From a virus (taxonomy: Duplodnaviria; Caudoviricetes), in the IMG/VR virus record IMGVR_UViG_3300035502_000313, positions 148,183-212,182 of that record: a DNA stretch of 64,000 nt; one strand, 5' to 3'. A program made the translations under genes and the position numbers. The stretch's first letter is position 1; each line of letters opens with the position of its first letter. The notes beneath the pieces were generated by a model. That model was not told where the DNA came from. It saw nothing but the letters and a program-made list of their open reading frames with translations, and did no database searches. This document shows, piece by piece, positions 3,358 through 49,899 of this stretch.

Positions 3358-4089
3358 ATGATTGATGTGGATACACCTAGCTTTATTAAAGTAAAAGGTG
3401 ATTCTTATGTATTTGCTAATGAAGGAACATTCAAATTCTATGTTCCTGAAAAGTATTTTTCTAATAAGCTCGCACAATTCGTAGGAGAATATATCTCACT
3501 ATTTGGAATGTTATCTTATGCAATTTTTGATAAGAATGACAAAGCTATTGGAAAACTAAGAACATTTAAGTTTCCAATCTCATTTCTGACTAAACCAGAT
3601 GAGATTGAAGTTGTAAAAGGAATTACTTTAACGAGTAATAACAACCCTAGTGATTATAGAATTCTTAAATATCATAAAGATGGAGTAATCGTAGTAAATT
3701 ATAATATTGCCGAAGACGCTGAGAATATTCAGCGTTGGTATTCTGCACTTGATACTGGTGCTTTACCTAATAATTTACCATATGATGAACTTCAAGATTA
3801 CTTTCTAAGAAATATTCAATTGACTGGTAATAAATACTCTGTTTCATTACAATTGATAGGAGTAGTTATTGGTGAATTATGTCGTTCTAGAAAGGATATT
3901 GATACTGCGTTCCGTCTAACTGACTCAAATGATATGAATAATTATCAGTGGATATCCATTAGAGATATCCCTAAAGGAGTATCTCCATTTACTGCATTAC
4001 AGTCCGAAGAATGGGACAAAGCTGTCATTTCTTCTATTATTGCAGACACTAATCGTGATTCTCCTCTTGAGAAAATTATGATGGATTAA
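3358..4089 (+). CDS. Multisubunit RNA polymerase beta' extreme C-terminal fragment (probably virion RNAP)
   Basis: VVIGELCRS...ISIRDIPKGVSPFTALQSEEWDKAVISSII...SPLEKIM aligns by eye with the beta' C-terminus (IEVIVRQM...GITKASL..SFISAASFQET..L..AA...LKE); late-type promoter at 3327-3338. Confidence 0.55.
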   Translation: MIDVDTPSFIKVKGDSYVFANEGTFKFYVPEKYFSNKLAQFVGEYISLFGMLSYAIFDKNDKAIGKLRTFKFPISFLTKPDEIEVVKGITLTSNNNPSDYRILKYHKDGVIVVNYNIAEDAENIQRWYSALDTGALPNNLPYDELQDYFLRNIQLTGNKYSVSLQLIGVVIGELCRSRKDIDTAFRLTDSNDMNNYQWISIRDIPKGVSPFTALQSEEWDKAVISSIIADTNRDSPLEKIMMD

Positions 4090-4211: not shown

Positions 4212-7200
4212 ATGAGTAGATATCCTGGCACACAGTTTAAAGTGTACGATAATTCTCAGGCTACAGCTATTGTTCCTGTAACCAATGTGAATGCAGATGA
4301 CACTGTCAAGTATCTTACTTCCTTTGCATCAGTAAAGGGTCCTGAGAGAATTACTCTTACTTCTGGTGACGATTTCTATACCAGATATGGCACTCAGGAT
4401 AATATAGACTTTAAAAAATATGGTCAGCCGTTATTTCAGGCTTCCATGAATATTAATAATGGTGCTGCCCTTCTTGCAAAGAGAGCTGTATTAGATGACG
4501 CAACTCTTGGTAATGCTACATTAGGTGTGGTTCTTACAAAATATAAAAATGCTAAAATCGAAAACTATAAAGATAGTAACGATGTTACTCATTCTGATAA
4601 GATTGGTAGCATTTCTTTTTCTGAAAAAGTTTATTCTAAGTATTCTTTAGCTCCTATAGTTTTTAGTATAGATAATGTAAATGATTATTCAAATGCTATT
4701 CAAATTGTAGATGAATACAAGGAAAGATATGATGCATATAAAGATTACATTACTGATGTAATTTCTAATGAAAATACACCTGATAAAACATTCCTTAATA
4801 AATTATTTAATAAGGGTGAGGATTCTGATAAGATCCTTAGTGGTTTTACTCAGTCTATATACTATGATTCAGAAGATAAAGTAGTTGATGTATTCAACGA
4901 TGGTAAAACTTCTGTTCGTAAGGTAAGTAGTATTACAACTGGTATTTATAATTCTAATCAAAAAACATATTCATCTAATTTTACTATTGATGATATTACA
5001 GGTGATAATGCATCCAAAGAAACTTCTATTGATGCAACAAATACAATTAATAGTGTAAAAGATGCATTTAAAGATACATCTTTATGGAAAGCTAGTAAAG
5101 ATGATGATAGTGGGAAAATAACTTGGGAAAAGATTAGTACTGAAGTAACATTTGCAAATGTTTTTGATAAAGAAATTTCTATTGATAGAATTTTCAATTA
5201 TGATGTATCTAGTAAATCTGATAGTGAAATTTCAGCAAAATTAATTGATGATGTTAGTGCTAAACATCCTGAATGGTCAGAAGATGATTATAGCTTAGGT
5301 GATGAATATGCCCTAATAATTCCTGGTGTTAAAGTTTCTGGTTATAGCACTACTGCAAGACTTCTAAATGATATTATGGTTGAACATAGTGGTTATATTG
5401 AATGTGAATATGTATTCCCTCTGTTTACTATATTCGATAATGGTCGTGGCGAATCTGTCAAGTCTATTGGTATTGAATATGATTCTGCTACTTCTGTAAC
5501 TCTTAAGAAGGCAGTTTATTCATTATCTATCTATAACTATGCTACGGCTAAGAGACTAGAGAAGTTCTCTTTCTCGTTAAATCCTTATGCTCGTAATAAT
5601 AGTACAGGTTATTCATTTGATATTGAATCTGCAGTAAACTATGTTTCTGAACAAGTTAACGTTAAGACATATTATGAATCTTATGATGCACTTCTTGAAA
5701 CACTTCAGGAAATCTTACAGTCTACGGATGATACATTAATTGAAAACAATGATATTTTGTTTGGTCATAATCTAAACGGTAAATATCCTGCATATAATTC
5801 ATACTATACATCATCTATGCTTAAGAGAAGTACATATGTTTATGACTATGCACATCTAGATATTTTTGATGATGATACTCTTACTGTAAATGCTTACTGT
5901 GATAGTGATAATATGACAAGTACTATATCTAATTTAAAGGTTAAGTACTATTTCTATAACTATATCAGACAGCAGAAGAGTCTTTTAGAAAGACTTGAAA
6001 TGGGTTCGAATGGTTACTATCTTGGAAGATCTACTGATAGATCAGAACAGGCTACTGATGTTGTACCATTTATTGTTATTGACGATACAGATACAACACT
6101 AGGTGATGATTCTTCGACTATTTCTATGTCTACCATAATGAGTTTGACTGGTCAGACCAATGGTGCTGTTATTTCAGATGTAACTGAAGATGTAGAATCT
6201 TCTGATATAACTTATAAACCTATAATTCAGAGCAACTTCATTGAATTTAAAGTTAAGTTAGCTAAAGCTTTAATATACAAAGATGGAAAACTTGATAGTT
6301 CTGGCGGTGATAATGGTATAGTATATATTACATCAAATGATAAGACATTATCCAGAAGTGATGTAATATCTGCTGAAAGTGATGATACTGGAAAAATAAC
6401 TGGCACAGTTCCAGCTGCATTTTCAGGTTATGTATTAGCATATAATTCTAAGAAGAAGTCTTATGATTATACTGCTATTACAATCTGGATACCACTATCT
6501 ACTGATTTCTTATATCAAGAACAGTATAGAAGATTCTTTGCCGGTGAATTCGATAGAGATATCTTTAACCTTGATATTTACTTCCCTAATGCATTATTTG
6601 ATGCAAACTACTCTGATTCAACTAAACTTGCAATCCAGAGACTTGCTGCATATAGAGGCGACTTTATGTGCTATATGGATATGGGTGTTAATAAGATATC
6701 TAGCTATGCAGATTGCTACGAAAGAATCCCATCTACAACAGGTGGTCTTGAACTTACTGAAGATGATAATGAATATAAATATATCAGAGATATGCATATT
6801 GCTGTAACATGCTTGTCATACAAGATTAGAAATCCTTATGATAACAAAGTAATTTCTGTAACAGCAACTTACGGATTATCAAATCTATATATTTCTCACT
6901 TCTTAGATGATGTAGGTAAGGTATTTGCTGGTATTTCTAATAATATTACTATCAATAATATTCTTGAGGGATCGGTAAGTTACATTCCTAAGATTTATCC
7001 TACAAGTGAAATGACATCATTAAATAACATTGGTGGTGTATATCCTTCTGATGATGAAACTATTATCAATGAAAAGCAGCTTATGTGTGATCTAAGAGTT
7101 AACTACGGTTGCTATTATGATGATAGATTCTCTATCGAAACAGAATATACTATGAATGCTGCTGAAAGTGAATTCTCTTATTGGAACAATGTGGCACTTG

Positions 7201-11742: not shown

Positions 11743-13783
11743 TGTTAGTCTCCTCCATCTGCTTCGGTTTGCTATATAAATATCCTTCCTTAAGTGTATT
11801 AAAAATCTCTGTAAAGTTATTAAAATCAGAACGTTTAAAATCATACTTAGGTTGATTGATAATACTCTTATCTCCGCAAGCCATTGCATGAACAATAGCA
11901 GCGTCTCTATCTGAATCACAGAATACAAATAAAGGCTTAACCATACTATCAGGTTTATTAGATACATCATCAAAATCATGATAAGTCAATATGCCATCTG
12001 GATATCTGATATTAGTAAAGTATTCTATTACATCATCATACATTTCTTCATAACTTGCAAAATGGAACCAACGATTAAAGAATTCAATCCAGTTATGTGA
12101 CTGTAGATCATCCATAAACTGTGCTTCTCTTTTCCATTTTATTTCGTCTCTATGAAATCTATTTTCAAATTCATATACCTTATTCGGAATATTGACATGA
12201 GCAATCAAGGTTGTTCTTGACATGTTTGCTTCAGATGTGATTGATGGATAAAGGGCTTTATAATCATAATCATCCAAGTTATCATATATAGATACTGGAC
12301 GTCCATTGATTTTACGTTTAGAATAATCACTGTTTAATTTAGGGTCAGCAACAAATGCACCTGGGAATGAAACTTTAGGTGTATTCTGATTTACATTGTT
12401 TCCTATAATCATTCCATAATTATAGTATGATTTCGCTGCTCTATTCTTAAGATATACTGTTTGTCTATAAATCTTAGACCAACGTGTATTATTAAGAAGA
12501 ACGTTATTATATGCTGAGTTAATATCATTAACCTTATATTCAATACAATACTGAACAATAGTATCCATGATATTATAAAATACAAATGTCTCATAATCTT
12601 TATAAGGTAATTCTGCTAAGTTCTTTGTAATATGACTATAATTAAGTTTCTTTACGCCACAAGTAATCTGTCCAATATAATCCAATTTATAACTTCCTAT
12701 AGCTGCTTGTCCTTTACGTCTTGAAGCGAAATGAATCATCTGGTCTAACCATACTGAATACGAACTAATCTTTGCAAAGTCATTACGTTCTTCATACTTA
12801 AACTGATTTCTTTCATCAATCATATAATTGACTTCTTTATATCTAAAATCAGGATGACACATAATATCTTTTGGATTAAATCCAAGATTGATAATACGCT
12901 GAATAATATACGGAACGTCGAATGCCATATTCCAAGCTAATACAAAATCAGGTTTAAGATTGTTAATATAATTAAACAATTGTCTAAGCATTTCTATTTC
13001 ATCCTTTTCATCATAGAAATGAAATACAACTTGCATTTTATCAACTCTATATTTTTTAGCTTGTTCTGGACCACCAACTGCATCAACAAGAAACTGTTTA
13101 AGTCTCATATTTAACATTGGTTCTTTTGATTCTCTTTCAAACTTCTCAATCAAAGGATTAGTATCATTTCTTAATAAGAATGAATGGATTATCAATGACT
13201 GGTCATCAATAAAAGAAACTGCATTTATAGGACACTCGCCTAACTCTACAAAATCTCCTTTACAATTAATTGTATCTGCTTCGATATCAAGATATGCTTT
13301 TGAAGGAACTGTATAAGAATTTTCATATGTGTGAGAAAACTGAAATCTAATATTATCTTCAATATCCATATCAGACATTAATATACTTGGGTCATAATTA
13401 CACATTGTTTTATTAGCAGCTCTATTACCATTTCTACAATTGTCATAGAACTTATCTAACTTTCCAAGTCTTTCAGCAATATCCATCTGTAATTTGGAAT
13501 ATGGAACAATAACACATTTACAATCTTCTATCATAGCATACTCTAATGTATACTCAGGAATTTTCATATCACTTCTGAGTATATAATATTCGTACATCGG
13601 GTCTACAATAGTTTCGAGAAATTTCTCACCAGTTTTATTATCCTTAATAATAAGGTCTATAGCACCACTTTCCCATTTACCTTCATTATTCTTTCTAGGA
13701 TAATGATATATCGTATTTAATAAAGATAATGGATATCCCTTAGGATATTGTCCTATGATAAAATCATTGTCGTAGTATTTCAT
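11735..13783 (-). CDS. polB: Family B DNA polymerase, N-terminal subunit (3'-5' exonuclease plus motif A)
   Basis: ExoI YLDIEAD, ExoII AWNMAFDVPYI, SYKLDYIG, ExoIII YNIMDT, motif A DYDYKALYPS; no motif B or C; start MKYYD after GGAGG. Confidence 0.9.
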   Translation of the reverse strand: MKYYDNDFIIGQYPKGYPLSLLNTIYHYPRKNNEGKWESGAIDLIIKDNKTGEKFLETIVDPMYEYYILRSDMKIPEYTLEYAMIEDCKCVIVPYSKLQMDIAERLGKLDKFYDNCRNGNRAANKTMCNYDPSILMSDMDIEDNIRFQFSHTYENSYTVPSKAYLDIEADTINCKGDFVELGECPINAVSFIDDQSLIIHSFLLRNDTNPLIEKFERESKEPMLNMRLKQFLVDAVGGPEQAKKYRVDKMQVVFHFYDEKDEIEMLRQLFNYINNLKPDFVLAWNMAFDVPYIIQRIINLGFNPKDIMCHPDFRYKEVNYMIDERNQFKYEERNDFAKISSYSVWLDQMIHFASRRKGQAAIGSYKLDYIGQITCGVKKLNYSHITKNLAELPYKDYETFVFYNIMDTIVQYCIEYKVNDINSAYNNVLLNNTRWSKIYRQTVYLKNRAAKSYYNYGMIIGNNVNQNTPKVSFPGAFVADPKLNSDYSKRKINGRPVSIYDNLDDYDYKALYPSITSEANMSRTTLIAHVNIPNKVYEFENRFHRDEIKWKREAQFMDDLQSHNWIEFFNRWFHFASYEEMYDDVIEYFTNIRYPDGILTYHDFDDVSNKPDSMVKPLFVFCDSDRDAAIVHAMACGDKSIINQPKYDFKRSDFNNFTEIFNTLKEGYLYSKPKQMEETNND

Positions 13784-13854
13784 TTTTATTTCCTCCATTT
13801 ACCAACGTACGCAATACGTACGTTTATATTTTATATAGTAGTTTGAGCATCTAT

Positions 13855-13983
13855 AAAAAACGACAGACATACTCCACAGCCGCCGAAACTGTGGAGATGC
13901 TGTTCTTTTGTTCTTTTAACAGAGGAAAACAATTCTTCGCAGAGGAAATCATGTCTCAACCAGAAGGCTGATTGCTCAACCTT
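13855..13983 (-). ncRNA. Candidate sRNA A (anti-RBS antisense RNA)
   Basis: Promoter AACA-TTTAGA-TA (13994-13983), 5' GCAA-loop hairpin, two TTTCCTCTG anti-SD boxes, terminator with T6; no ORF and no upstream gene on this strand. Confidence 0.65.
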
Positions 13984-14058
13984 ATCTAAATGTTGATAAA
14001 TATTAGCGATTTATGTGAAAAACATTTCTATAATACAATCAAAAGGAGGAAATAAAAT

Positions 14059-15015
14059 ATGGCTTATTTAAACTTTGACATTTTAAAAGGCAATACTACT
14101 TCAGATAATAAACCAGAACAAGATTTAACTCCTACAGTTATTCCAGTGTCTGAAGGTGAAGAACCTGCAAAAAGAAAAAGAGGAAGACCTAGAAAGAGTG
14201 AGCAACAACCTCAACAAGCTACAGCAGAGATTATTCCTTCTGCTGGTACAAATCCTGTTAATACTGTTTCTATGTGTCAAACATCAGAACCGTATATTGA
14301 TACTTTTAATGAAACAAATGACATGTTAAAGTATTCTATTATGCAGTTAGATGTATTAACTTCTGATGTAAAGAATGAGTTAGATTCTATTAGAAGTTCT
14401 AAAACTCTTAAGGGTAAGTATAAGTATATTTCTGACTTATGTGCAACAGCAAGTTCTCTAGTAAGCTCTAAGATTTCTGCTATTAAAGAAATCAATGCTG
14501 TAACTCATAACTGTCATAAACTTGAACTTCAAAGGGTTAAAGATATCAAGAACTCTGCAGCTAATCAACAGGATGATGATAAGTATATTACTGACCTTTA
14601 TAATGCTTACATTAATACACCTGTAGGAGCTGGTCCTAATCCAGCATTACAATATACATCTTCTAATGTAGCTGGTAATATGCAAGCATTAATGGGCGGT
14701 GTTAATACTATTCCTGTAAACGAAGACCAGAACTTCCAGAATTATATGAGTAATCTAACTCCTGAACAAAATAGAATGATTCTCGGAGATAAGTCCAATA
14801 TTGAAACTGTAGTTGTTTATGATCCTACAACTGGTGAAAAGTCATTTGAAGTTATTGATTCTAGTACAGGTATTTCTGTACCTAATTATCCAAGGCCAAA
14901 TGCAGGACTTCTAGATGATACTAGTATAGATATGGCTACTGGTATTGCATCTAATACAAATATTGGACAGAGTTGGAAAGTTGTCGTACTCGGAGATATG
15001 ATAAACAAATTCTAA
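14059..15015 (+). CDS. AT-hook-containing hypothetical protein
   Basis: KRKRGRPRKS motif near the N-terminus; central helical region; late-type promoter 14021-14032. Confidence 0.65.
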   Translation: MAYLNFDILKGNTTSDNKPEQDLTPTVIPVSEGEEPAKRKRGRPRKSEQQPQQATAEIIPSAGTNPVNTVSMCQTSEPYIDTFNETNDMLKYSIMQLDVLTSDVKNELDSIRSSKTLKGKYKYISDLCATASSLVSSKISAIKEINAVTHNCHKLELQRVKDIKNSAANQQDDDKYITDLYNAYINTPVGAGPNPALQYTSSNVAGNMQALMGGVNTIPVNEDQNFQNYMSNLTPEQNRMILGDKSNIETVVVYDPTTGEKSFEVIDSSTGISVPNYPRPNAGLLDDTSIDMATGIASNTNIGQSWKVVVLGDMINKF

Positions 15016-19480: not shown

Positions 19481-20479
19481 TTGAGTTATCTTAATAGTTT
19501 GAGAGAGATTTTACACGAAATTAATATTGGTGGTGAAGATCCAAACGCTTCTCAAGAACCTGATGAAGATGATGGTGACCAGAACTTTATGGATGATAAT
19601 GATGATTCTGACACATCAGATAATACTACCGATGATTCTTCTAATTCTGATGATGAAGGAGATCAGAACTTTATGGATGACGATTCTGATAATAGTGAAG
19701 AAGAACAACCTGATACAAACGACAAAGGTTCTGATGAAGATGATGGTGACCAGAACTTTATGGATGATGATTCTTCTGATAACAGCGAAGATGATACAAC
19801 ATCTGATGATAATAACGAAGAAACTGATTCAGGAGATGAAAACTCTGGTGACCAAAACTTCATGGATGATGACGGAGGTGAAGATGATTCTGGTGAAACT
19901 GAAGACAGTGGAAAAGAATCAAATGATAATAATGAATCTGAAGAAAATAGTGATGATAATTCTGAAGAAGATGAAAATGGATATGATATTAATAAAATAG
20001 AAGATGAGCTATTCTCTAGTCTTACTCCAGAACAAATTGCTATTAAGAATCATGAACTTAAAAATCAATTCATTGAGCTTTATTCTATTATAGGAAGTAC
20101 ATTAGTAAGAATAAACGATATTTCTAAATCTAATGAAAATATTAATGTATTAAAATTTATAACAGAAAAGTTATTAGAGCTTAGAGAGATGATTGATTTC
20201 AATATAACTACTGCATATCAAACAAGAACTTATATTGAAAATAATATTATATATCAGCAATGTATAGCTACATTAAATGCTATTGCTGAAATTATAGATA
20301 ATATTCCTAAGTTAGATGGAAAGAAAGAAAACGAAGATGAAAACGAAATAGATAATAAGGGGATCCCAGTAGAACAAGATAAAGAATCTTCTGAAACATT
20401 AGATATTTCTGACTCTAGTGTATCTAATTATCAAGAGGAATCTACTGACTATTCTTCTGAATATAATGACCTATTTTAA
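19481..20479 (+). CDS. Highly acidic protein upstream of the capsid gene (scaffold/prohead core candidate)
   Basis: TTG start after GGAGGTG; D/E/S/N-rich N-half with four GDQNFMDD repeats. Confidence 0.55.
   Translation: MSYLNSLREILHEINIGGEDPNASQEPDEDDGDQNFMDDNDDSDTSDNTTDDSSNSDDEGDQNFMDDDSDNSEEEQPDTNDKGSDEDDGDQNFMDDDSSDNSEDDTTSDDNNEETDSGDENSGDQNFMDDDGGEDDSGETEDSGKESNDNNESEENSDDNSEEDENGYDINKIEDELFSSLTPEQIAIKNHELKNQFIELYSIIGSTLVRINDISKSNENINVLKFITEKLLELREMIDFNITTAYQTRTYIENNIIYQQCIATLNAIAEIIDNIPKLDGKKENEDENEIDNKGIPVEQDKESSETLDISDSSVSNYQEESTDYSSEYNDLF
19560..19875 (+). repeat. Four intragenic GDQNFMDD-coding repeats
   Basis: GG(T/A)GA(C/T)CA(G/A)AACTT(T/C)ATGGATGA recurs four times. Confidence 0.9.
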
Positions 20480-20499
20480 AATTTACAATGGAATATCAT

Positions 20500-20511
20500 A
20501 ACAATATAATA
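20500..20511 (+). promoter_or_regulatory. AR9-type non-virion RNAP promoter AACA-N6-TA (capsid gene)
   Basis: AACA-ATATAA-TA; one of 20 intergenic copies. Confidence 0.75.
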
Positions 20512-20626
20512 AAATAGTGAAAGGGATTTTATTGCTTGCACTATTAAAAATACAAATAACATCAATATCATCATCTAAATATTTATATTTTAACATTTTA
20601 TAAAAATTCAAAAGGAGGATACTAAT

Positions 20627-22657
20627 ATGCCAGTAATCGGTGAACAGATTAGCCGTAAGCCTGGTTCTGCGGGTTATACCCACGATCCTATGGCTGGTTT
20701 TGCAAAAGAATTTTTAAGTCTGTCTAACTCAATTCTTGAAGAAGCTAGACTAGATTTATATGAAGATACATCAAAGGTTCTTAGAAAAGGTATTTCTGAC
20801 GAGACATTAAAGAGCTTCTTTATGGAGAACTCTGCTGATCCTCGTGGAATGACAACTGAAGAATATGAGGATCATATGCTCATGATGGAGCAGATGTATG
20901 AAAATGATAAGGAAGCAGTTCTTGAACACTGTGGTATGGGACAGTACAACCCTGTTGTAGGTATGACATTCCCTATCCATAAGAACATTATGCTTAACAA
21001 CATCTTTGACAAGGGTGCTATTCCTAAGTTTGTTGCAACTTCTCCTAAGTTCACAGTAAGCATGGAAACAAGATGGCTTATTGACCCTGAAACAAATGAG
21101 AAGATTGATATGTGGAGAGAACAGTTTAAGATGACAGATGCTATTGATAAGGCAGCTCCTCTTAAGACTCTTTATCTACCTTTACCAGAAGCACAGAATA
21201 CAAATGTAATCGAAACATTATTCGGTGTTCCTGCAGACCATAATACAAACCTTTCTATCGAATCTCACCTTTCTGGTCTTATCGGTAACAAGGTTGTATA
21301 TCCTGGTCAGACTATCAGAATCGTTGTTGAGAATTCTGATTCTGCTACAACTCCTGCTACAGTTACATATGAAGTAGTTAAGTATACAAATACTACTGAA
21401 AAGGCATATGTAATTCCTACTGACACACCTACAGATCTTGCAGATCAGCTTCCTGAAGTTGAGGATACTGTAACTCAGACTGTTATCGGTGGTGTATTTG
21501 ATTGGAGAGGTCCGTTCACTCCTGCATATGGCGGTTATGATCGTCAGATTTGTGAGCAGTACGCACTTCCTCTAGTAACATCTGTAGCTGAAGGTACTCT
21601 TCCAAGCACTTGGAAGTTAACTGTAACTCTCGCAGATGGTTCTACAGTTGACATTGATAATACAACTGATGAGAATGCTATTCCTGGTCAGTACAGAACA
21701 GTTGGTTTTGTATCTGGTTTCACAAAGGATAACAGATTTGGTCTTACAACTTCTAATGCAAGTGTTCTTGGTGTTCTATTAACATCTAGACTTGACACTT
21801 CTTCTGCTATGCTTAAGACAGCTTCTGTATCTTGGGATGTTCGTACAGACATTATCGAAATTCCTAATGCAGTTCCGATTAATGTTACAATCAGCCCTGA
21901 AGAAGTTAAGGATATCGCTGCACTCTATCAGATTAATCAGCTTACTAAGATTATGTCTCTCATGAAGATTTCTCTTGGTAACTACAAGGATGATAAGATT
22001 CGTCGTCAGCTCGATACAAGCTTCCTTACAATGCCTGATGATTCTAAGATTGCACGTCAGTTTGACTTTGCTCCTTCACAGAGCTATGCACTTGATCCTA
22101 TTGAATGGCGTCATAAGACATTCATGGATGCTCTTGATACTCATGCAACACAACTTCTCCATGTATTAAATGATCCTAACGTTACATTCAATATCATTGG
22201 TCGTGATGATCTTATCAGAAAGATTACTCCTACAGATTATACATATCAGTCTCCTTCTGCAATTGGTCCTGTTCAGCTTGACTTTGTTAAGACTGTTGTT
22301 ACATCTGATAAGAGAACATATCAGTTCATTAGCTCTGATAAGCTTCGTGATAGCAACAACCTCATGATTATCGTTTGCCCAAGAAACTCTGAGAGATTCA
22401 TTTACAGAATTTATGATTATCAGATGTATCTAAGCAATGAAATCAGAAACATCACTAACCCAGCTCTTCCTGCAGTTCATGCATTCGAGAGATGGATTAT
22501 GAGAGATTACCAGCCGGTACAGGGACGTATCAGAATCCTGAATCCTACTGGTCTACGTAACTACAGCACTGATTATGCATTCAACAACGATCCAACAGGT
22601 CGTGGTGACGGCATGAGAAGCATTGGTAAGAACGATTTCAATATCGATGCTATCTAA
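20627..22657 (+). CDS. Major capsid protein
   Basis: 676 aa with strongly biased codon usage; N-terminal E-rich propeptide-like region; SPEEVKDIAALYQINQ and PALPAVHAFER patterns; own promoter and terminator. Confidence 0.75.
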   Translation: MPVIGEQISRKPGSAGYTHDPMAGFAKEFLSLSNSILEEARLDLYEDTSKVLRKGISDETLKSFFMENSADPRGMTTEEYEDHMLMMEQMYENDKEAVLEHCGMGQYNPVVGMTFPIHKNIMLNNIFDKGAIPKFVATSPKFTVSMETRWLIDPETNEKIDMWREQFKMTDAIDKAAPLKTLYLPLPEAQNTNVIETLFGVPADHNTNLSIESHLSGLIGNKVVYPGQTIRIVVENSDSATTPATVTYEVVKYTNTTEKAYVIPTDTPTDLADQLPEVEDTVTQTVIGGVFDWRGPFTPAYGGYDRQICEQYALPLVTSVAEGTLPSTWKLTVTLADGSTVDIDNTTDENAIPGQYRTVGFVSGFTKDNRFGLTTSNASVLGVLLTSRLDTSSAMLKTASVSWDVRTDIIEIPNAVPINVTISPEEVKDIAALYQINQLTKIMSLMKISLGNYKDDKIRRQLDTSFLTMPDDSKIARQFDFAPSQSYALDPIEWRHKTFMDALDTHATQLLHVLNDPNVTFNIIGRDDLIRKITPTDYTYQSPSAIGPVQLDFVKTVVTSDKRTYQFISSDKLRDSNNLMIIVCPRNSERFIYRIYDYQMYLSNEIRNITNPALPAVHAFERWIMRDYQPVQGRIRILNPTGLRNYSTDYAFNNDPTGRGDGMRSIGKNDFNIDAI

Positions 22658-32358: not shown

Positions 32359-35300
32359 ATGTCTGTTCAAGTACAGAAGTATATAAAGAATTTAGGCAAG
32401 TCTATTACTTATTCTGCAGCCGATGTATTGAATAGCAAATTTGAATATATAAATGAAACTAAACAAGAGAATCAAGAAGTATTCAAAGAAGTATATCATT
32501 CTATAAAGGATTATAAAAATACATTTGCTAGAGTAAAGAAAACTATTACTGATAATAAAGTAATGGATGCAGCCAGAGTAGGTTATAATTCTGTTTTATA
32601 CAGTATTACAACTGGCGATTTCTATGCTAAACAGAGAGAAGCAGAAGTCATGGAAAAATATGGAGGATCCTTCATGCAAGGATTTGACATGGATGACGAT
32701 GACTTTGATTGGGACAATGATGATTTATCTACAGGTGATAAGGTTGTTGCTACTGCTATTAAAAAGAATAGTAAGATAGGAACAGCTTTAACTGTAGAAG
32801 CTATATCTCAGACTGGTAAAGCACAGATGGATGTTTCTAGAGAAAACACTATGCTGTTATATACTCAGAATGAGCGTATGTTAAATAAATTAGATAATGG
32901 GTTTGGAAATATATTAGGTTTTCTAAAACAAAATGGAGAACAAACTGCAAAAGTTCAAAACCAGATGAATGAAAATCTTAATAAGTTTATGACAAATGTA
33001 GATAATAACATTACTAAACTTACTAAACAAATGGATGAACTTCTCGAAATGCAGAGAAATATGTATAATCCTAAAAAAGAAGAAGAAAAACGTAAAGTCG
33101 GCTATGATGATATGATTAGTCGTAATGGTGTTTTAAATATTAAAGAGTATTCTAAGCATGTAAAAAAGAATGCTTTTAATACAATTAATGATATGTCTGG
33201 TGGAATGCTAAGTTATATATTTGGTGATTCTTTAGGACAAGGTTCTAACTTATTAGCACAATTTTCTGCTAATCCATTTAGAACAATATCAGAAACATTT
33301 ATAAATAAAGCACTTGGTAAAAACTTTGATAGAGCTGCTAAAGAATTAAATACTACATTAGAAGGTATTGTACCATCTTTAATAGGCAAACTTAATGCTG
33401 CGTCTAAAAAAGATGATAGTGGTATTATGGGATTCTTAGGAAAAATCTTTGGTATTAAAGATGGCTCTAGAGAAAATATAGATACTAGTAGATACAATAA
33501 AGGTGCTATTCCTTTTGATGGAATTACTAAGAGGGCTATAACAGATGTAATACCTTACTATTTAAGAAAGATGACTTCTGTCTTAACTGGTGAACAGGAA
33601 ATGATATATGATTTCCAAACTGGCAAATGGAGTAGTATGAAAGCTGTAAAAGCTGCTCATGATAATGCTGTAAATTCTGCTAAATATAGCACTGCTAATG
33701 CATTAACAGGAATTATAGAAAGTGGTTTAGGTGGTAGAAGATTAAGTGATTCGTATAAGAATAAATATGATTATGACAAAATAGTAAAAGCTATTGAATC
33801 TTTAGCAGGAAAATTACAAAATGCAGGAGACTTCGGAAGCGTTGATGAATCTCTCGATATATACGAAAGAGATGTAATGAAAATGCTAAGAGAAGCTATG
33901 CGTCTTGATGATGGAAGTGGAAATGATAGAAGATTTACTAGAAATTCAAAAGGTAAAAGAATTTCTTCTGGAATACAGAGAAGTGCTATCGGTGGATTCA
34001 ATAATATGCTAAGACAAAATAGATTATCTCAAAATAATACTATAAAAAGTATAAATAATGGAGATTCTATATTACGAATCATAGAATCAGAAGGTCTTGC
34101 ATCTCAAAGTACTGAAAATTATCAAGCAAAAAGTTTTGTTAATAGTCATGGTGATTTTGATCAAAATAAAATTCAACAAATGCCTGTTACACAAGCTTTA
34201 ATTCGTGGTAGAGATGAATATGGAGTTACTCTATATCAATATCTTAGAGACATGGATCTTAGTTTACGTTATATTAAAGCTAATTCTACTTATCTTGGAA
34301 GTCTTAATAGTAATGAAAATGGTGAATCTAATAAGAATAATGAAGAGATAGTTAAGCATATTCTTAAAGATGGAGACATTGATTTTACTAAAGATAAAGA
34401 ATCTCAATACATTGAAAAATATTTTGAGAATATGCAAAATAAAAATAGACGTAAAGAAGAAGATGATTGGGATAAAAGAATTTCAGAAGCTAGAAAAAGA
34501 GCTGCAGCTAAGGGAGAAATATATACATTAGCTACATCAACTGATTTTGAAAGTTCAAATGGTGATACAGGAATAGCTAATATAATGCGTAATAGTAGTT
34601 CTAAAACTGCTGCTAAAGCTAAAATAGCATATACTAGAGAACAACAGAAACAAGAAGAAGAAAGATGGAAGGCTATTGCTGGTATAATCGGCCAAGAGGA
34701 AGCGAATAAAGCTAGAGCTAACTTAGATCAATATGACTCTGATAAGAGTATAAAAGATAATATGGAAAAAGTTAAAGATAAAGGCTTTACTGCTAGTCTT
34801 ATGATGTTTGCTAAATCTCTTGGCAATAAAATACGTAATCCTGGCGATGCAGCTGCCGATACTATTGTTAAAGTAGATTATTGGTTACAGAAACTCATAT
34901 ATGGTGAAGATTTAAAAGATTCCGAAAATGGTAGAAAATCTTTATTTGAAAATATGAAAGATCAATTCCAAAAGGGTATACAAGGAATTAGAGAATCTAT
35001 AGATAAAGGTTTTGAAAAATTAAAAGAAAAAGTTAGTCCATTATTTAAACCACTCAAAGAATTAGGTAAAAAAATATTTGGTACAAAAGATGAAAATGGT
35101 TTTTATCAAGGTGGTATGATAGGATCATTTATCGGAGGTGTTCAAAAAGGTTTTCGTAGAAATTCTTCGGATTTTTCAGGCTATATTAAAAATCAATATT
35201 CAGACTTTAAAAATAGATTTACTCAAGATAGACCTGAACCTGAATTATCGTCTAAACAAAAATATGATGCTAGACGTTCAGAGATAATGAATAAATTAAA

Positions 35301-38300
35301 TCGAGAAGCAGAAAGTGAAAACCAAATTATTAGTGGTAATGCATTAGAAAAGATTGCTAATATATCAGCATATAGAGTTAAACAGTCTTCTGTAAATAAT
35401 GAAAAAATAGATGGAGATGTTAAAAGAGCTGCTAGAAAGCAAGCTATGATAGATGAATTAACTAGAAAGATAGAGAATCAAGAAGCTTCAGTTATTTCTA
35501 GTGAAAAGTCAATTGCTTCGTTAAAACAACAATTACAAACTAAATTATATAATAATGAAGATCCTGGGGATTTAGAAAAAAAATTAGAAAGTCAAGAAAA
35601 GGTTTTAGAAAAGACAAAGGCTAATTTGAAAAATAATAAACAAAAGTTAGCCAAAATAGTAAATAGCACTACAAAAAATAAATACATGGCTGTTGGCGGT
35701 GTTAATAAAACAGGAAAGCCATTTAGATCTGTATTATCTGCAGGTGAGTTACATAACGGAAATATAGTTCCTAAAATGGGTATATATCAAATTAATCCTG
35801 GTGATACTGTTATAAATCCTGCTGGTGCTGCTACAAGAGCTAAACAAGCTAATGCCGAAAGAAAGTATCTTGCTAATATAAGAAGAAATGCAGAAGCTAA
35901 TGACAAATTAACTCCAACCGATGATACTAAAACTAAGGACAAAGATTCTGATGAACAGAATAAAAAGAAGATTCAGCAACTTCTTACTGATACAGACTGG
36001 AATAGTTTATCTACTAAAGAACAAAAGAAAGAATATATCGGTAATGTTGTTTCTAAAGGTTTAATTGGTGGCGGATTAGGTTTACTTGTAGGTGGACCTT
36101 TAATAGGTGCATCTATCGGTGCTGCTTCTGCTTTAACTAAATCTACTGGTTCATTTGCTAGTTTCTTATTTGGTGAAGCTGTTACCGATAAAGATGGTAA
36201 TATACAAGTTGATGATAAAGGTAATGTTAAAAGAGCTGATAATGGTCTTATTAGTCAGGAAATAATGAAGGCTGTGCCAGATATTAAGAAGTATGGTCTT
36301 GGTGGTGCAATTGCTGGTCTATTAACTCCTATCGGTCCTTTAGGCGGTGTTCTTGTTGGCTCTGCATTAGGATTTGCAAAGAATTCTGAAATATTCCAAG
36401 GCTCTTTATTTGGTGAAGGTGGAATATTCTCTGAAGAGAATAAAGCTAAATTTAAAAAAGGTGCTAAAAGCATGGGAATCGGTGCTGCTATTGGTGCGTT
36501 TACTGGTGGTCCATTTGGTTTAGTAGGTAATGCATTATTAGGTGCTACTGCAGGCTATGTTACATCAACTGACAAATTCAAAGACTTTGTTCTTGGTGAA
36601 AAAGATGATCCAAATAATCCTGAAAGTAAGAGACATGGTGGTGTCATGGGTGTTCTTAAGAGTGCTGTTGAACCACTAAAAGATTTTGGTAAAACACTTA
36701 CTAACGGTATATTAGATGCTGTGTTTGGTAAGAAAAATGGTGAAAATGGCAAACGTGAAGGTGGATTATTTGGACTTGTAAGAAAAACTATAATAGATCC
36801 TTTAGCAGACGGCACAAAGACCATGGTAAATGCATTAAATGAAAAAGTAAGAGACATCGGATTTATGGCTAAAAAGACTTGGAAGAAAATTCAAAGAAAA
36901 ATGGCTGGTAATGATGGAGCAGGAGTATTTGGTGAATTTGGTCAAAAAATTGCTAAGGGTGCCACTAAAATAGCCAAAGGTGCAATTATGGCTCCACTAC
37001 TTCCTTTAATGGGAGGAGTAAAATTAGCACAAAAAGGTATTTTTAATCCAATTAAGAGAAAATCAATTAGAACTGGTAAAGCAAGTCATATGACTGCTAG
37101 AGAAAGATTAAAAGCAAGAGGCGAGCTTGGTATGGCTGAATATGATGACTATACTCTTTTTGATAACTCTCTTACTGAAATGGACAATGATTCTATTCAG
37201 TCATTAAAAGATAGACTTTCGGTTTATGTAGATGGCGATGATGCAGCGTTTAAAGAACAGAATAATCTTTTTGACAGTACAGGAAGAGAACTGAGAGATT
37301 ATATATCATCAAAAAATGCAAATAAAATTATGAAAAGTCTTAAAAAAAATGACTATAGAGAAGCTGAAAGATTAATTAGAACTGGTAATTTTAAAATAGA
37401 GGGTGGTGAAGCTAATAGAGGTAAACTTGAAGCAATAATTAAAAAGCATAAAAGAAAATATTCTACAATCGATGAAAGAATGGCTAAAGCTAACAGTGCA
37501 AGCAAATTATCAAGTAAAGTTCTTAAAGATGAATATGGCCTTGATGTTGATTTAAACGATCCAAGAGATGTTGATAAGGTTAAGAGAATGCTTGATAGAG
37601 AACTGATTCATAACGAAGCTGGATTAACTGAAGAGGATATGGAATTTGATAGAATGAGAGAATTCTGGTCAGATGATAAATCTCCTCTTAAGACAGTTAA
37701 TAGTGGTGTAGAAGCTGTAGTTAAAACTTTAGATAATATTTATAATGAAGTAAAACTAGGTAATGAATATGACAAGTTATCTGATGAAGAAAAATCTAAA
37801 TATGAATCTAGAGAAGATTATATTCAAAAGAATAAAGCTACTGCTGAACCAGATGCTACTCAAGATAAACTCAATGGTAAAAAATCTGATTCTACTAATA
37901 AACATAGAAAATTTTCTAGGGTTAAAATGGTACAAGAAAATCCAGATAAATTCTCAAAAACTATAAAGAGAATTATTGAAGAAGCATTGAAATTATTTGA
38001 CGGAAAAGTAATGGAAGAAATTAGTGACCCAAATAAAATTAAAATAGATATCGATAAATGGAAATTAGAGAATCCAGATAAAGACTATAATAATGAAAAG
38101 CTTATTAGAACTAATATTATTATTGATAGTCTTGACCAAAAGTATGAGTTTGACTGTGCTTATGTATGTAAGCAAAGTGGTAATAATTTCTCAGTTGAAA
38201 TTGCTAAAAATCAATCAGAGAGTTTCGAAACATGTAGAGAAGATTTTGCTAATGCATATCTAGATGCACGTATGCCTAAAAGTGCTAAAGGTAAAGGCAG

Positions 38301-41300
38301 TTATATGAGTTTTAAAGACATGGTTAAAAAGACTATAAAGATATCAGGATTCTTTGTAGCTGCTAGTATTGTTCCTGGTGGAGCTCTTGTTTTAGGAGCA
38401 AAACTTGCTTTTATGAAAATAGCTAAAAAACGTGGATGGGATAAAAAACTCAAAAATGGTATTAGACGTGTTAAAAACGATGTAAAACATGTTCTTGGTT
38501 CTCATGCGATTGATTCAAGTTCAAAAAGACAACAAAGAAAAGAAAAAAACTATAATGCAAAAGCTGAAAAAGTACTTCAGAAAATGATAGAAAAAGGTGA
38601 TGCTCAGCTAGATACTATAGCACAAGAAAAATATAAAAAGAACTATTCTGAGTTAACTGATGATGAAAAATCAGCGGTAAATGCTACATTCAAAGAAAGA
38701 TATGTAAATAATAAAATTGCTAATCAAGTTACCGGTCATGGTTTATTAGGAAATATTAAAGCTGCTCCTAAAGCTCTCATGGGAACTTTAAAATCTGGTA
38801 TAAAAAATCTAACTGCTGGTAAAATTGATAAAGTCAAAGAGAAAATACAAAAACAAAAAGAAGAAGATAGATTTATAGGAAAATTATTTAATAAACTAGA
38901 TAAATGGAAACTAGGAAGAGATGAGAAAAACTTTAAAGGTAAAAAGGATAGTAGACTTGCTAAAATACTGAAATGGCTATTTATAGGCGGTATTGCTGTT
39001 CCTATACTAGTAGGATTTGTTAAAGATAAAATCATGCCTGCTGTTCATGATAAGATTCAACCATGGCTAAAGAAAGCTGCACAAAAGCTTATTGGTACTA
39101 AGAATGAACAAACTGGTGAATATGAAGGTGGAATAATAGCTGGTATCGTAAATCCTGTTAGAAACTTCTTTAAAGACAAATTCCAAACTATTAGTGATTG
39201 GTTCCATAATAAAGGAAAGTTTACTAGTCCCGATACTGGTTTCAAAGGATTAATAGGAAACTTTAAATCTGCAATCAATTACGGTATAACACTATGGAAA
39301 GATGGTACATCTACAATTCTAAATGATTGCTTGCCTAAAGTAGTTGAAGGAATAGTAGCTAATTTACCAACTATACTTGGTGCTATAGGAACTGGTTTAA
39401 TAAATGGTATAAAGGATATCTTTTTTGGTAAAAAAGATGGTACTGGAGAACAATCATTAGAAACTGTAAATGCTTCTCAGATGGTTGATTCTACTTCTTC
39501 TAGTAGCGATAATGATTCATCTTCTTCAAGTACTGGAATTAAATTTAATAATACAGTTGGTGGAACATGGGTTGAAACAGTAGGTGGATCGTCAACTAAA
39601 GTAGGAAGTTATGTAGATGTAGTTTCATTAAATAGTGACATATATCAACCTACTTCAAGAAAAACTAATGATGATGGATCGACAACTTTAACAAATGAAA
39701 ATACTGGAGAATCTGTTACATCTGAATTTATTGATGATGATTCGATGGTATCTGCTGGTACAAACAAAGCTGGAGATAAAATATATTATAAGAGAACAGA
39801 TGTTAACAGAACTCAACCGTATACAAAGGCTAATGACGGTGAATATGTTAGAATGGATAAGCAATCCAGTGTTATGCTTAGCAGTCTTCAAGACAATCAA
39901 AGCTATGCTGATATGGTTGCTGATAACGATGCTGGAGACGCTGGTGTAACTGATTCTTATACAGGAACAAACCCAGCTTTAGAAAAGACAGCATATGCTG
40001 GAAAAGTATTAACTAAAGCAGCAACTAGTAAATCAGGTGCTAAAGGTCTTTCTATGGCAATTAAAGCTGGAGGAAAAGGTGTTAAAATAGCTGGTAAAAT
40101 GATTAATCTTATTCCAGGCACAAATGTTGCTGGATGGGCTACAAAGAAATCATTAGGAAAAGTTGGAGATAAAATAGTTGATTCTGCAGATGATGTATCA
40201 TATAAATACTATAATTTCATGCAATCTAAAATATCCAAAGCAGTAGAAAATAGTAAAGTTCTAAGCAAGGTTAATAATGCAGGAATTAAGATTAAAAATG
40301 CTCCTAAAAATATAGCTGAGAAAGCTAAAAATGCTATAAAAAATAAAATGGGAAAAACTGCAGAGAATGCTACTAAAAATGCAGCCGAGAATGCCGCAGA
40401 AAAAGCCGCTAAAGAAACTGCTGAAAAAACAGCTAAAGAAGCTGCAGAGAATGTTACTAAAAATGCAGCTGAAAGTGTTATGGAAAGTTCTACTAAAAAT
40501 GCAGCTAAAACAGGAGGAACCTCATTTTTAGCTAAATCCGTTAAAGAATTATTTGAAAAAGCCAAAAGTAAAATAATTGAATGGTTTGCAAAGCTATTTA
40601 AAGGTAGTGCTGTAAAAGAAGCTGCAAAAAATGCTGGACGTGAAATAACAGAAGAAACTGCAGAAAAATTAGCTAAAGAAACTGGTGAAAAATTAGTTAA
40701 AGAATGTGCTGAACAGGGTGCTGAAAAAATAGCTACAGTAGCTGGTAAAAACCTCGTATCATCAGCATGTGATTGTTCTGGTATAGGAGTAGTAATTAAT
40801 ATAGCATTTGCTATAGCAGACTTCTTACTAGGTATGGATGATGCTAGAAATATATTACAAATTACTGGAGATGATATTCCATTATCTTATAGATTCTTCG
40901 CAGGTCTTGCTAATACAATGCAAGATATTCCAATTGTCGGAATATTATTAGGTTGTATTGGAGCTAAGAACATTGTTTATTATCTAGTAGAATGGTTTGG
41001 AGATATTCTCTTCCCTGAAGCTACTGAAGAATTAAAGAAGAGACAAGAAGAAGCACAACAAACTCTTGAACAATATAATGCACAAAATAATACTAATTTA
41101 ACACTAGAGCAGTATAATAATAAAAAGTACGCTACTGTATCAAGTACAGTAAGTGGATGGTTCTCAGATGCTGGTTCATTCTTATCAGGAAAAGATGCTA
41201 CAGTATCAGAAGCTATGGAAACAAGACGAAATGTAGCAGATTCTAATGATACTGTAACTGACATAAGAGAAAAACTTGAAAGTATAGCTTCTCATATGTG

Positions 41301-44300
41301 GGAAAAACAAGGTGATAAATTTAAAGATTTTAACCTTAGTAAAGATACATATGGAAAGTTATGTGCTGAAGTTATTGATAAGATAGTATTATTACTAAAT
41401 GGATTAGATGATGATTCATTAAGTAAAGTTTTAACTAGTGCTGGAAAAATAGAAACAGGATTTTGGGCAAATGCTGGTTACACTACTCTAAAATATCTTA
41501 CTTTTGGTGCTTATGATGGTGACCCATTTGTTGATGCATGGGATGACGGTTATAAAGGTCTTTCATATCTTGGTCTTGATAAAAAAGATGGATGGGAAAA
41601 TACAAGTGTTGTAAAATGTATCGGTGGTATAGCTTCAGTATTTGTTAAGGCATGTGGTGGAGCTAACTTAAAATGGAAAATTATTGACATCGTAATTTCT
41701 GTATTTGGTAATGGTATGGCTGGAGATTCTATAGATGAAAATTCTAAGAAACTTGTAGAAAATAGCAATTCCAAAATATCAAATATTAATGATGCGTATG
41801 ATTCAAATTTACACGGAAATTCTGGTACAACATCTGTAAGTCTGTCATCGTCCGATTCGTCATCAACATCTACAGCAGAAGATGTAGTTGCAAATGCAAA
41901 TGCTAATAGTAAATTATCAGCTATATCTGGATTGTACAACACAGCTAAATCAAACATGATTAACACTGCAGGTTTTATAGATGATAAGATAAGCAGTAGT
42001 CTATTTGGCGAAGTATATAATAATGCTAAATCAACTGCATCTGGATTGTATAACACAGCTAAATCAAACTTAAAATCTACAGCATCAGGTTTATATAATA
42101 CTGCTAAATCAAACATGATTAACACTGCAGGTTTTATAGATGATAAATTAAGTAATAGTCCATTTGGTGGAATATACAATTATGATAAATCTGCTGCATC
42201 AGGATTATGGAACTTCTTTAAAGGAATATTTACTAATGCAGAAGCTAATAGTAACTTATCTCCTATAAATATGACATCAAACAATAAAGATAAAAATAGT
42301 GGTTCGTCAATAGGTAGATTTCTAATGCTTATTCCTAATACTATTAATAATGCTATAACAAATATGACTGGTGATTTAAGTAAAATAGAAGATATGTTCT
42401 CTGGTCTAGTTAAAAAGAATAAGAGTATAAATGATTCTATTGATTCTTTATCATTACTTCCTACAGATAAAAAATATTGGGATATCGAAGTAGATAATGA
42501 TAACCCATTTGTAAGTGGACTGTTTAAATTTGTTGAATCTATGAACAGAGTTGTTAAGGCACCATTCTCTTTGGCAGTTTCGTCATTAGGAAAGGGATTG
42601 TCTGCTGTTTCGTCTTCATCATCAAACAGTAGTAGTTCTTCTTCATCTTCGTCATCAAGTGGATCAACAAATAGTAGTGATAGTTCTTCTAGTAGCAGTT
42701 CTAGTAGTAGTGGTGGTATTTTATCTAAAATTGCTACTGGTGCTAAATCAATATTTAAAAAGGTTTCATCTGGTATAAAGAGCTTTTTTGGTTTTGGTAA
42801 AGGTAAAGATGATTATGATGATACTGGTTATGGTGATGATCCTTTCCATATTTATCAAAGAGATTATAAAGGCTCATATAGAACTACTGGAGATTCAGAA
42901 AGTCAAACTATAGCAGATTCAGGTTGTGGACCAGCTGCAGCAGCATCATTGTTAAGAATGTATGGCAAGAAGGGTGATATGCATAATGCTGTTAATTATG
43001 CTTTAAGTAATAAATATAAAGAAGTAGATGGTGGTACATATCCTCAATACTTTAATGATTACTTAAATAAGAACGGTATTAGTACAAACTCTAATGCAGA
43101 TAATAATGATGTAGTAAATAGTCTTATTCACAATAAGCCTGTTATCTTAATGGGACGTGATTCAAGTAATAGTGGTACAACGCCTTATGGATCTAAGTAT
43201 TCTCACTATGTAGTAGCTAGAGGACTGGATTCAAATGGTAATGTTATAGTAGAAGATTCTGAAGATAAGAACGGTAGTACTAGATATAGTCTAGCAGATA
43301 CTCTAAGAAATTCATCAGTAAGAATAACAACCGGTAATGGTAAATATGGTAGAGGTGCTACATCATCTATGGCTGAAAACTTTACCACAGGCGTTAGCTA
43401 TACTGTAACATCAGCAGTTTCTAATATAGTATCTAATGCAGCAAATTCTGTGGCTGGACTATTAGGAAGTAGCTCTACATCATCTAGTACATCTAATGAT
43501 GCATCTGCAAGCACTAATGGCGTAGAAGGAAGTATTACTGCTGATACTGATGTTAAGACAAAATGTGGTTATACTGCTGATCAATTAAAAGCTGCTATTA
43601 CATCAATTCATTCAGGATGCAGTGCAGAACAATTCCCTGAACTTGCTATACAAGTTGAAAATTCTAAGGGTGTCAATGCATTATTTACAATAGCTGTAGC
43701 TATTAGTGAACATGGATGGGATGGTACAATTGGTGTTAATACTACCGGTGCAAACTGGGGTAACTATAACCCATTCAATATATCCGGTTCTCCTAACTCA
43801 TCAAATGGAAGATGGAAAGATTATAATAGCTTAAGTGATGCATTTAATGGATTTGGTGACTTAATTATGGGCAGTGGTTATTATCAAGCTGGATTAACTA
43901 CACCTGGTACAATTGGTCCTAGATACTGTGATAGTGGATGGGCTAGTGGTGTATGTACAGTCGCTGATATGATTGTTAAAAAGATATCCGGTAGTGGTAA
44001 GGGCAAAGAAATTATGTCTACATTTAATAATAAATTCTTAAGTAATGTAAACAATGCTGTTAATTACTTTGCTACTAAATCTCTAGCAAGTCTTTCATCA
44101 GGTTCTACATCATCATCTGACTCACAATCTAATAACGCTAATAATAGTAGTGGCGGTACAGCAAATGTTGATATAGATGCTGAAACAACTATCATCTGTG
44201 GTGACTCTGTTACACATGGATTAAGTAGTACTAGTCTTGGAGATCGTGCAATGGGTCTAAGCTCAGGTACAACTGATAAGAATAATACTACAACTTATGG

Positions 44301-49787: not shown

Positions 49788-49899
49788 AAAGATATAGAAA
49801 TGGTGACCTGTATCTTTTATTCATTTTTATTTTTCTCCTGGAAAATTACTTACATAAAGAAAATTCCTCACTGGACTTTAATCCAGTGGGATTTTCTTT
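49788..49899 (+). ncRNA. Candidate sRNA C (anti-RBS antisense RNA)
   Basis: Promoter AACT-ATATAG-TA (49777-49788), 10-bp 5' hairpin, seed TTCATTTTTATTTTTCTCCT, terminator. Confidence 0.6.

Follow-up and report, generated by a model that had tools for sequence, protein, structure and literature searches.

A conserved small-RNA candidate with anti-Shine-Dalgarno motifs precedes the DNA polymerase gene in an uncultured AR9-like jumbo phage

The 64,000-nt stretch of DNA analysed here (the window) corresponds to bases 148183-212182 of a viral record that is 212,182 bp long and has direct terminal repeats. Homologues of the RNA polymerase beta and beta' subunits are split across genes in this 212-kb phage genome, as indicated by family profile matches: PF00562 (RNA polymerase beta) is matched at G000 38046-38660 and 20473-21057, and PF00623 is matched in a 526-aa beta'-N protein carrying the DFDGD motif. 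The family-B DNA polymerase (PolB; PF03104, phrog_3011) is encoded on the minus strand at 13783-11735, and its nearest cultured relatives are those of the Bacillus phages BpSp, AR9, and PBS1, at ~31% identity. The source can be classed as an uncultured AR9-like jumbo phage. All genes of the phage use strong GGAGG ribosome-binding sites (RBS), which suggests that the host is probably a Firmicute. Divergent from PolB, on the plus strand, is an unannotated gene for a 318-aa protein (14059-15015); the only family match of this protein is a sub-threshold AT-hook (KRKRGRPRK, residues 38-48). The two genes are separated by a 260-nt gap (13799-14058), and the candidate small-RNA unit described here lies inside this gap.

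The unit occupies positions 13994-13855 of the minus strand and opens with the promoter motif AACA-TTTAGA-TA (AACA at 13994-13991, TTTAGA at 13990-13985, and TA at 13984-13983). Late promoters of the AR9 non-virion RNA polymerase have the consensus AACA-(6N)-TA/G, and transcription starts at its last base (PMC5312081). The unit promoter fits this consensus, by which the predicted +1 is the A at 13983. A 5'-terminal hairpin begins at this same base, with DNA arms AAGGTTGA (13983-13976) and TCAGCCTT (13971-13964) enclosing a GCAA loop; its RNA form, AAGGUUGA-GCAA-UCAGCCUU at 13983-13964, is also present in the minimum free energy (MFE) fold. As predictions, both the promoter call and the coincidence of +1 with the beginning of the hairpin are well founded.

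Downstream of the hairpin are two motifs of the anti-Shine-Dalgarno (anti-SD) type, each contained in one copy of a 17-nt direct repeat (82% identical, spacing 20). Copy 1, AGACAUGAUUUCCUCUG, lies at 13956-13940 and has its core, UUUCCUCUG, at 13948-13940; copy 2, AGAAUUGUUUUCCUCUG, lies at 13936-13920 with its core at 13928-13920. The two seeds are thus two copies of one motif, which can be written (A/U)UG(A/U)UUUCCUCUG. The DNA word TTTCCTCTG, found at both core positions (13948-13940 and 13928-13920), occurs 3 times in the window against an expectation of 0.51, a count reached in 2 of 100 shuffles, and two of these three copies are the ones that sit 20 nt apart within the unit. The CCUCU of repeat copy 1 has an unpaired probability of 0.70. 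The predicted terminator has a core stem of CTCCACAG (13896-13889) and CTGTGGAG (13879-13872), or CUCCACAG/CUGUGGAG as RNA, and is followed by a U6 run at 13860-13855, the predicted 3' end of an RNA of ~129 nt. The U run begins 11 nt past the core stem, and a simple terminator scan did not call the hairpin; the MFE fold lengthens the stem to 13903-13862, i.e., to 2 nt before the U run.

The minus-strand fold of the 130-nt stretch has an energy of -39.8 kcal/mol (z = -2.99; equalled by 1 of 200 shuffles), and the plus-strand fold has a z of -3.43. Since both strands fold better than shuffles, fold energy cannot choose the strand. The relatives described below can: on the minus strand, a run of 4-8 T and then ATA follows the hairpin in all close homologues, whereas the T-rich tract of the plus strand is not kept among relatives, indicating that the strand of the unit is the minus strand. 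Depending on how much of the terminator stem is counted, the U run starts 2-11 nt past it. An Rfam scan of 13000-15000 at E <= 10 gave a best E-value of 0.57, with all scores far under the gathering cut-offs, and a nucleotide search of a phage collection returned zero matches.

The promoter motif recurs in the surrounding genome. There are 22 copies of the stricter form AACAT-N4-ATAA, 17 of them in the intergenic 7.9%, and almost all are 5-45 nt ahead of an SD and ATG on the same strand. With the loose consensus, half of the intergenic matches have a start codon 16-44 nt from +1. Also enriched upstream of genes is an early motif like that of AR9 (TATATATTAT). The unit stands apart in its spacing, as its +1 is 200 nt from the PolB start, whereas the mode for other promoters is near 28 nt. 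Two further promoters flank the unit. The promoter of the divergent 318-aa gene, AACATTTCTATAA (14021-14033, plus strand), is an inverted copy of the unit's own, and the two stand back to back, 26 nt apart. On the other side, PolB has a promoter of its own, the variant AACT-ACTATA-TA at 13843-13832 (minus strand), which lies outside the RNA and bounds the unit; in most relatives a canonical AACA-AATATA-TA follows the U run, ~50 nt before the PolB ATG. The AACA-N6-TA motif was also seen at two other places. One is upstream of a single 5000-aa open reading frame (ORF) at 32359-47361 (plus strand), where the early-promoter regular expression matched too; a Peptidase_C39-like domain (3519-3634) and one of the phage tail lysozyme type (4295-4465) were identified in its product, probably a giant protein of the virion or tail. 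The other, outside the window at G000:C1 19032 (plus strand), is followed directly by tRNA-like sequence (GCGGGTATGGTGAAATAGG...), an arrangement that suggests a late-transcribed tRNA cluster.

Searches with PolB brought together ~100 related loci, which derive from metagenomes of the rumen, the gut, and other sources, and a covariance model was built from 12 distinct unit sequences. An initial scan of viral contigs for the pattern AACATTTANNTAAG...ATGATT lacked specificity, and most of its output was noise. The covariance model detects the unit at 19 loci at E <= 1.6e-7 (12 distinct sequences), always directly before PolB. The unit is single-copy in each complete genome, and a second copy is absent in four whole relatives. 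RNAalifold on the 12 sequences gives a terminator stem of 12 pairs, 10 of which have compensatory double changes. A hairpin starts at +1 to +3 in 16 of 17 homologues with differing stem sequences and loops; the stems include AAGGUUGA/UCAGCCUU, GGUUGU/GCAACC, AAGAUGGUAU/AUACCAUCUU, AAGAGUGG/CCACUCUU, and others. The promoter AACA-N6-TA is kept in all homologues. Across the 12 sequences, the AUGAUU and CCUC blocks of copy 1 are nearly invariant; in copy 2 UUGUU is invariant and CCUC is kept. All 14 homologues that were folded have at least two CCUC motifs outside the terminator. Most of these motifs have unpaired probabilities of 0.5-0.99, with four at 0.26-0.49, compared with whole-RNA means of 0.35-0.47. 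One subgroup has a third motif, CCUCC, within the loop of the 5' hairpin. The strongest more-than-chance support for the unit is this comparative evidence of covariation and conservation in relatives.

These comparisons bear on a preliminary description of the locus, made from the sequence of the window. The AACA-TTTAGA-TA promoter, the hairpin beginning at the predicted +1, the two exposed anti-SD-type motifs, and the terminator hairpin with its T6 run are all present where that description placed them, and each recurs in the homologues as set out above. Its assignment of the unit to the minus strand is borne out by the T run, and its argument that the unit could not be a 3' UTR is accepted. 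The GNRA loop to which it drew attention is present in this sequence but must be incidental, as loops vary among relatives. The description further called the unit stand-alone. The anatomy behind this term is well supported, but the term was applied without regard to PolB, which starts 72 nt downstream on the same strand.

Conservation of the layout extends beyond conservation of the sequence. In groups whose PolB is 52-59% identical, the sequence is unalignable and the layout is the same: promoter, 5' hairpin, two pyrimidine motifs (CCUCC, CCUCU, and once CACCUCC), terminator, and PolB promoter. L193 and L194 are an exception, with no predicted 5' hairpin and with UUUCCUUU as the pyrimidine motif. 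Diverged forms of the unit are found in relatives down to ~50% PolB identity, and relatives at 41-45% have a short gap from which the unit is absent. The only element of apparent relevance to function that is kept through all of this divergence is the short SD complement. In the relatives L006 (3001-5350) and L009, the PolB match extends over ~2350 nt for ~660 residues, and straight translation meets 30 stops; an intron, an intein, or a frameshift may break up the PolB gene there.

A natural deletion helps to define the unit. In the 9.1-kb contig L182 (1200-1510), whose PolB is 79% identical, exactly the ~145 bp between the unit promoter and the PolB promoter are missing, leaving a fused AACA-TATATA-TA promoter before PolB. 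Five sister loci (L183, L184, L190, L260, and L271) keep the unit. Because L182 has lost the unit and yet keeps the expression signals of PolB, the unit behaves as a discrete module; it is also dispensable, at least in this variant.

Taken together, the fit of the promoter, the split RNA polymerase genes, the conservation, the separate PolB promoter, and a layout like that of Firmicute Rsa RNAs support the reading of the unit as a small-RNA gene. That the unit specifies a small RNA is likely. From its anatomy we infer the following course. The phage non-virion RNA polymerase would initiate at the A of AACA-N6-TA (13983) and halt at the hairpin and U run (about 13855), producing an RNA of ~129 nt. 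The 5'-terminal hairpin probably would protect the 5' end, and the middle of the molecule would be poorly structured and display the two copies of UUUCCUCUG. The exposed CCUC(U/C) would then pair with the SD regions of mRNAs (GGAGG/GAGGAAA), lowering their translation. Base pairing as the mode of action of the CCUC motifs is at best about an even proposition. As a whole, the best explanation is a separate gene for a small RNA, with pairing to ribosome-binding sites as the likeliest action of its CCUC motifs; this explanation stands at even odds.

The closest parallels in design come from bacteria. The C-rich Rsa RNAs of Firmicutes have a 5' hairpin that is thought to be stabilising, an unpaired UCCC that binds the SD and prevents formation of the initiation complex, and a terminator (PMC2790875); LhrC is another of the C-rich anti-SD small RNAs of this phylum (PMC4132741). 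Like RsaE/RoxS, the other Rsa RNAs, the RNAIII loops, and LhrC, the unit combines a 5' hairpin, mostly unpaired C-rich motifs in its most conserved part, and a putative intrinsic terminator; as in the Firmicute C-rich RNAs, these motifs are complementary to the Shine-Dalgarno sequence and the predicted length falls at ~100-130 nt. The differences are that the motif is UCCUC(U/C) rather than UCCC(C), that the unit is phage-encoded, and that it has an AR9-type promoter. It is a candidate read from sequence, and it shows neither sequence nor Rfam kinship to RsaE/RoxS. The unit may at most work like the Rsa class and is not a member of it.

Among phages, AR9 itself offers a parallel for the transcription signals; its operons end at predicted hairpin terminators, observed by RNA-seq (PMC5312081). 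The unit resembles the late units of AR9 in its AACA-N6-TA with a start at the last A, in its predicted hairpin terminator, and in the split multisubunit RNA polymerase genes of the genome. However, PolB of AR9 itself is behind an annotated early promoter and a plain 105-nt leader, with no equivalent unit. No comparable small RNA was found in searches for papers related to AR9 or in a term search of the AR9 transcriptome paper (PMC5312081). In the giant Pseudomonas phages 201phi2-1 and phiKZ, ONT-cappable-seq detected small transcription units in which a start site is followed at once by a termination site, and most of these lie in 5' UTRs (PMC11512511). Like them, the present unit is a short promoter-terminator unit upstream of a conserved gene, with its position kept and its predicted structure conserved. 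The former belong to phiKZ-like phages and have RNA-seq support, whereas the unit belongs to an AR9-like lineage and is read from sequence. Its predicted start-to-termination layout agrees with that of 5'-UTR small units, in which both sites lie within 250 nt upstream of a gene. The unit differs from them in having a separate promoter for the downstream gene and a defined, recurring motif.

If the motifs act by base pairing, specific mRNA targets might be expected to stand out. The preliminary description had read one seed as the complement of an SD, an ATG, and the codons for Ser-Gln-Pro, with a target elsewhere in the phage or in the host. The longest match to the seed-1 complement elsewhere in the 212-kb genome is 11 nt, and an exact search of its 20-mer complement in 185,579 species genomes gave 3 matches (Gemmatimonadetes, Anaerolineales, and Proteobacteria), which is the level of chance. 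In a sister subgroup, the block after CAUG is displaced by one base (UCUCAACC versus CCUUCAACC), so that the seed does not mirror a common reading frame. This detailed reading of the seed is not supported: no conserved or co-varying target was found, and the searches for a target elsewhere in the genome or in hosts lend it no weight.

Broader searches gave a similar picture. For seed 2, a match of 14 nt was found at the RBS of a gene encoding an 88-aa DUF6275 protein. When the RBS of all genes are ranked by duplex, the top places go to those of the beta'-N gene at G000 82211 (GGAGGAAAUAACAUGUACUCAAC) and of a gene for a 567-aa protein at G000 132895 (GGAGGAAAUCAUAUGUCU); both were rejected as targets, as their best duplexes are within the range of shuffled seeds. 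The orthologous RBS preserve the match only in part. A CopraRNA-like ranking of 128 genes in four genomes gave best conserved candidates with a mean z of only ~-2, and blastn-short searches of each relative's seed against its own genome found no shared target. As targets, early genes cannot be told from late ones (p = 0.67), and GAGGAAA-type RBS occur in 15% of late genes and in 0 early genes. Co-evolution between the RNA and neighbouring RBS was not detected, as cognate pairs are no better than swapped ones for PolB (2151 of 5000 permutations) or for the divergent 318-aa gene (540 of 5000). Locally, seed 1 has its best match in the RBS of the 318-aa gene (GGAGGAAAU), and in several genomes the two agree, by eye, in how many A residues follow GAGG. 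A point against the pairing model is that the motif, by fitting almost any strong SD of the phage, does not explain specificity.

The dispensability of the unit, at least in L182, counts against the small-RNA reading, and so does its strict synteny with PolB through deep divergence, which suits a role in cis equally well. The unit would then be a leader or attenuator of PolB: transcripts from 13983 would mostly stop at the terminator, and regulated read-through would tune polymerase synthesis, with CCUC folding back in a long 5' UTR onto either the PolB SD or a GGAG-like 3' arm of the terminator. The 72-nt distance from the U run to the PolB start, on the same strand, is in keeping with this, and the position is constant in every relative with the unit. 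Most small transcription units of giant phages are products of premature termination in 5' UTRs (PMC11512511). In the window, AUUUCCUC could pair at every base with the PolB RBS GAGGAAAU, and in several relatives the terminator 3' arm is GGAGGA or GAGGA, which could pair with the motifs. Set against this, the flanks of the PolB RBS vary in L179, L180, L181, L183, and L186 while the motif is constant (in L179 and L180 the flank is GGAGGUUAU, as against UUCCUCU in the unit), the PolB permutation test reported above shows no advantage of cognate pairs, and the GGAG-like arm is missing from the diverged groups (L191, L006). Moreover, PolB has its own canonical promoter beyond the terminator in most relatives, and L182, without the unit, keeps PolB behind the fused promoter. 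A cis-acting leader is thus unlikely. Another proposal denies the unit any function and sees in it a by-product, in which a duplicated late promoter stands ahead of a terminator or insulator and PolB and the divergent gene are shielded from each other. The two promoters that flank the unit are similar, and L182 shows its clean loss by recombination between the two; the back-to-back arrangement 26 nt apart is also in line with this proposal. An insulator does not account for a covarying 5' hairpin at +1, though, nor for the survival of two or more exposed CCUC motifs in homologues whose remaining sequence has been erased by divergence, nor for the two other units built on this plan that occur elsewhere in the genome and in its relatives. 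A by-product is therefore quite improbable.

The motifs might alternatively be recognised by something other than an mRNA. CU-rich motifs 20 nt apart could bind a phage or host protein, or could mimic the 16S tail, so that the RNA would act as a decoy that titrates a factor. The CCUCC sequence is the anti-SD core of 16S rRNA, and CCUCC or CACCUCC appears in diverged homologues. The two motifs form a tandem 17-nt repeat whose AUGAUU and UUGUU blocks exceed what SD pairing needs, and the searches of the genome, the relatives, and the hosts found no mRNA target. Set against this, no candidate protein was identified, and the sole element found in all groups is a complement of the SD, 4-5 nt long; such a length is small for a protein site but typical of SD-targeting seeds (PMC2790875); a protein-binding or decoy RNA is accordingly unlikely. 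The last proposal is that the locus codes for a peptide, either a plus-strand micro-ORF (MSQPEG) behind GAGGAAATC or a 33-codon minus-strand ORF (13952-13851). ORFs are listed on both strands (13851-13952, minus; 13843-13971, plus), and an SD-like GAGGAAAUC precedes the plus-strand ATG. The sequences of relatives argue otherwise, and both peptides were rejected, as neither is conserved. The plus-strand ORF has 6 codons here and ~16-28 in relatives, with unrelated internal sequence, and its common C-terminus, QPYLNV, simply reflects the complement of the promoter, which is conserved; an AACA-type promoter for that strand was not observed. The minus-strand ORF is in another frame in L179, owing to a 1-nt indel, and a usable SD is absent. 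Compensatory changes in the stems suit RNA structure rather than codons, and a coding function is extremely improbable.

The small-RNA reading gains from two further units in the window that have the same order of promoter, 5' hairpin, CU-rich sequence, and terminator (29403-29327, minus strand, and 49788-49899, plus strand). Their 5' hairpins covary, and their CU-rich motifs (UUCCUUUCU; UCUCCUG/CCUCUC) recur in most relatives; sister unit B is missing from one relative, G003. These sister units support the existence of a class of late small RNAs in the lineage. A hairpin of another kind, AACGUACG-N5-CGUACGUU, lies in the 5' UTR of PolB at 13824-13804 (minus strand), directly before the SD GGAGG at 13796-13792, and a hairpin is also found at this position in relatives. 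By analogy, it could be a translational operator or a 5' stabiliser; the autoregulation of T4 gp43 is a precedent for the former. The genome has only 3 sites similar to this hairpin, and a regulon defined by ACGTA..TACGT was rejected, because the genome has only 3 sites for it.

The unit is thus a real, conserved, and structured element, and it appears to represent a family of phage small RNAs that is new but belongs to a general kind already known. The cataloguing of small RNAs in jumbo phages has only just begun, and we know of none with a known mechanism. In a phage lineage of uncultured rumen and gut origin with AR9-type transcription, the unit provides a compact, conserved candidate with an explicit motif, and the comparative set assembled for it includes 12 distinct sequences, one naturally occurring deletion, and the two sister units. 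In phage T4, the proteins RegB and RegA act on the Shine-Dalgarno and start regions of early mRNAs. The proposed role is similar in that a phage-made factor at SD and start regions would reshape translation during infection; it differs in that the agent would be an RNA rather than a protein, and in that early genes are no better targets than late ones. If CCUC acts on ribosome-binding sites, the unit would be an RNA counterpart of RegA/RegB, and the small-RNA design of the Firmicute C-rich RNAs would also be used by phages. A more speculative view, to which we assign a low probability, is that the lineage makes a set of at least three late small RNAs whose 16S-like anti-SD motifs are global competitors for the SD. 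If this is true, such phages would possess an RNA layer that re-ranks translation initiation on host and phage mRNAs late in infection.
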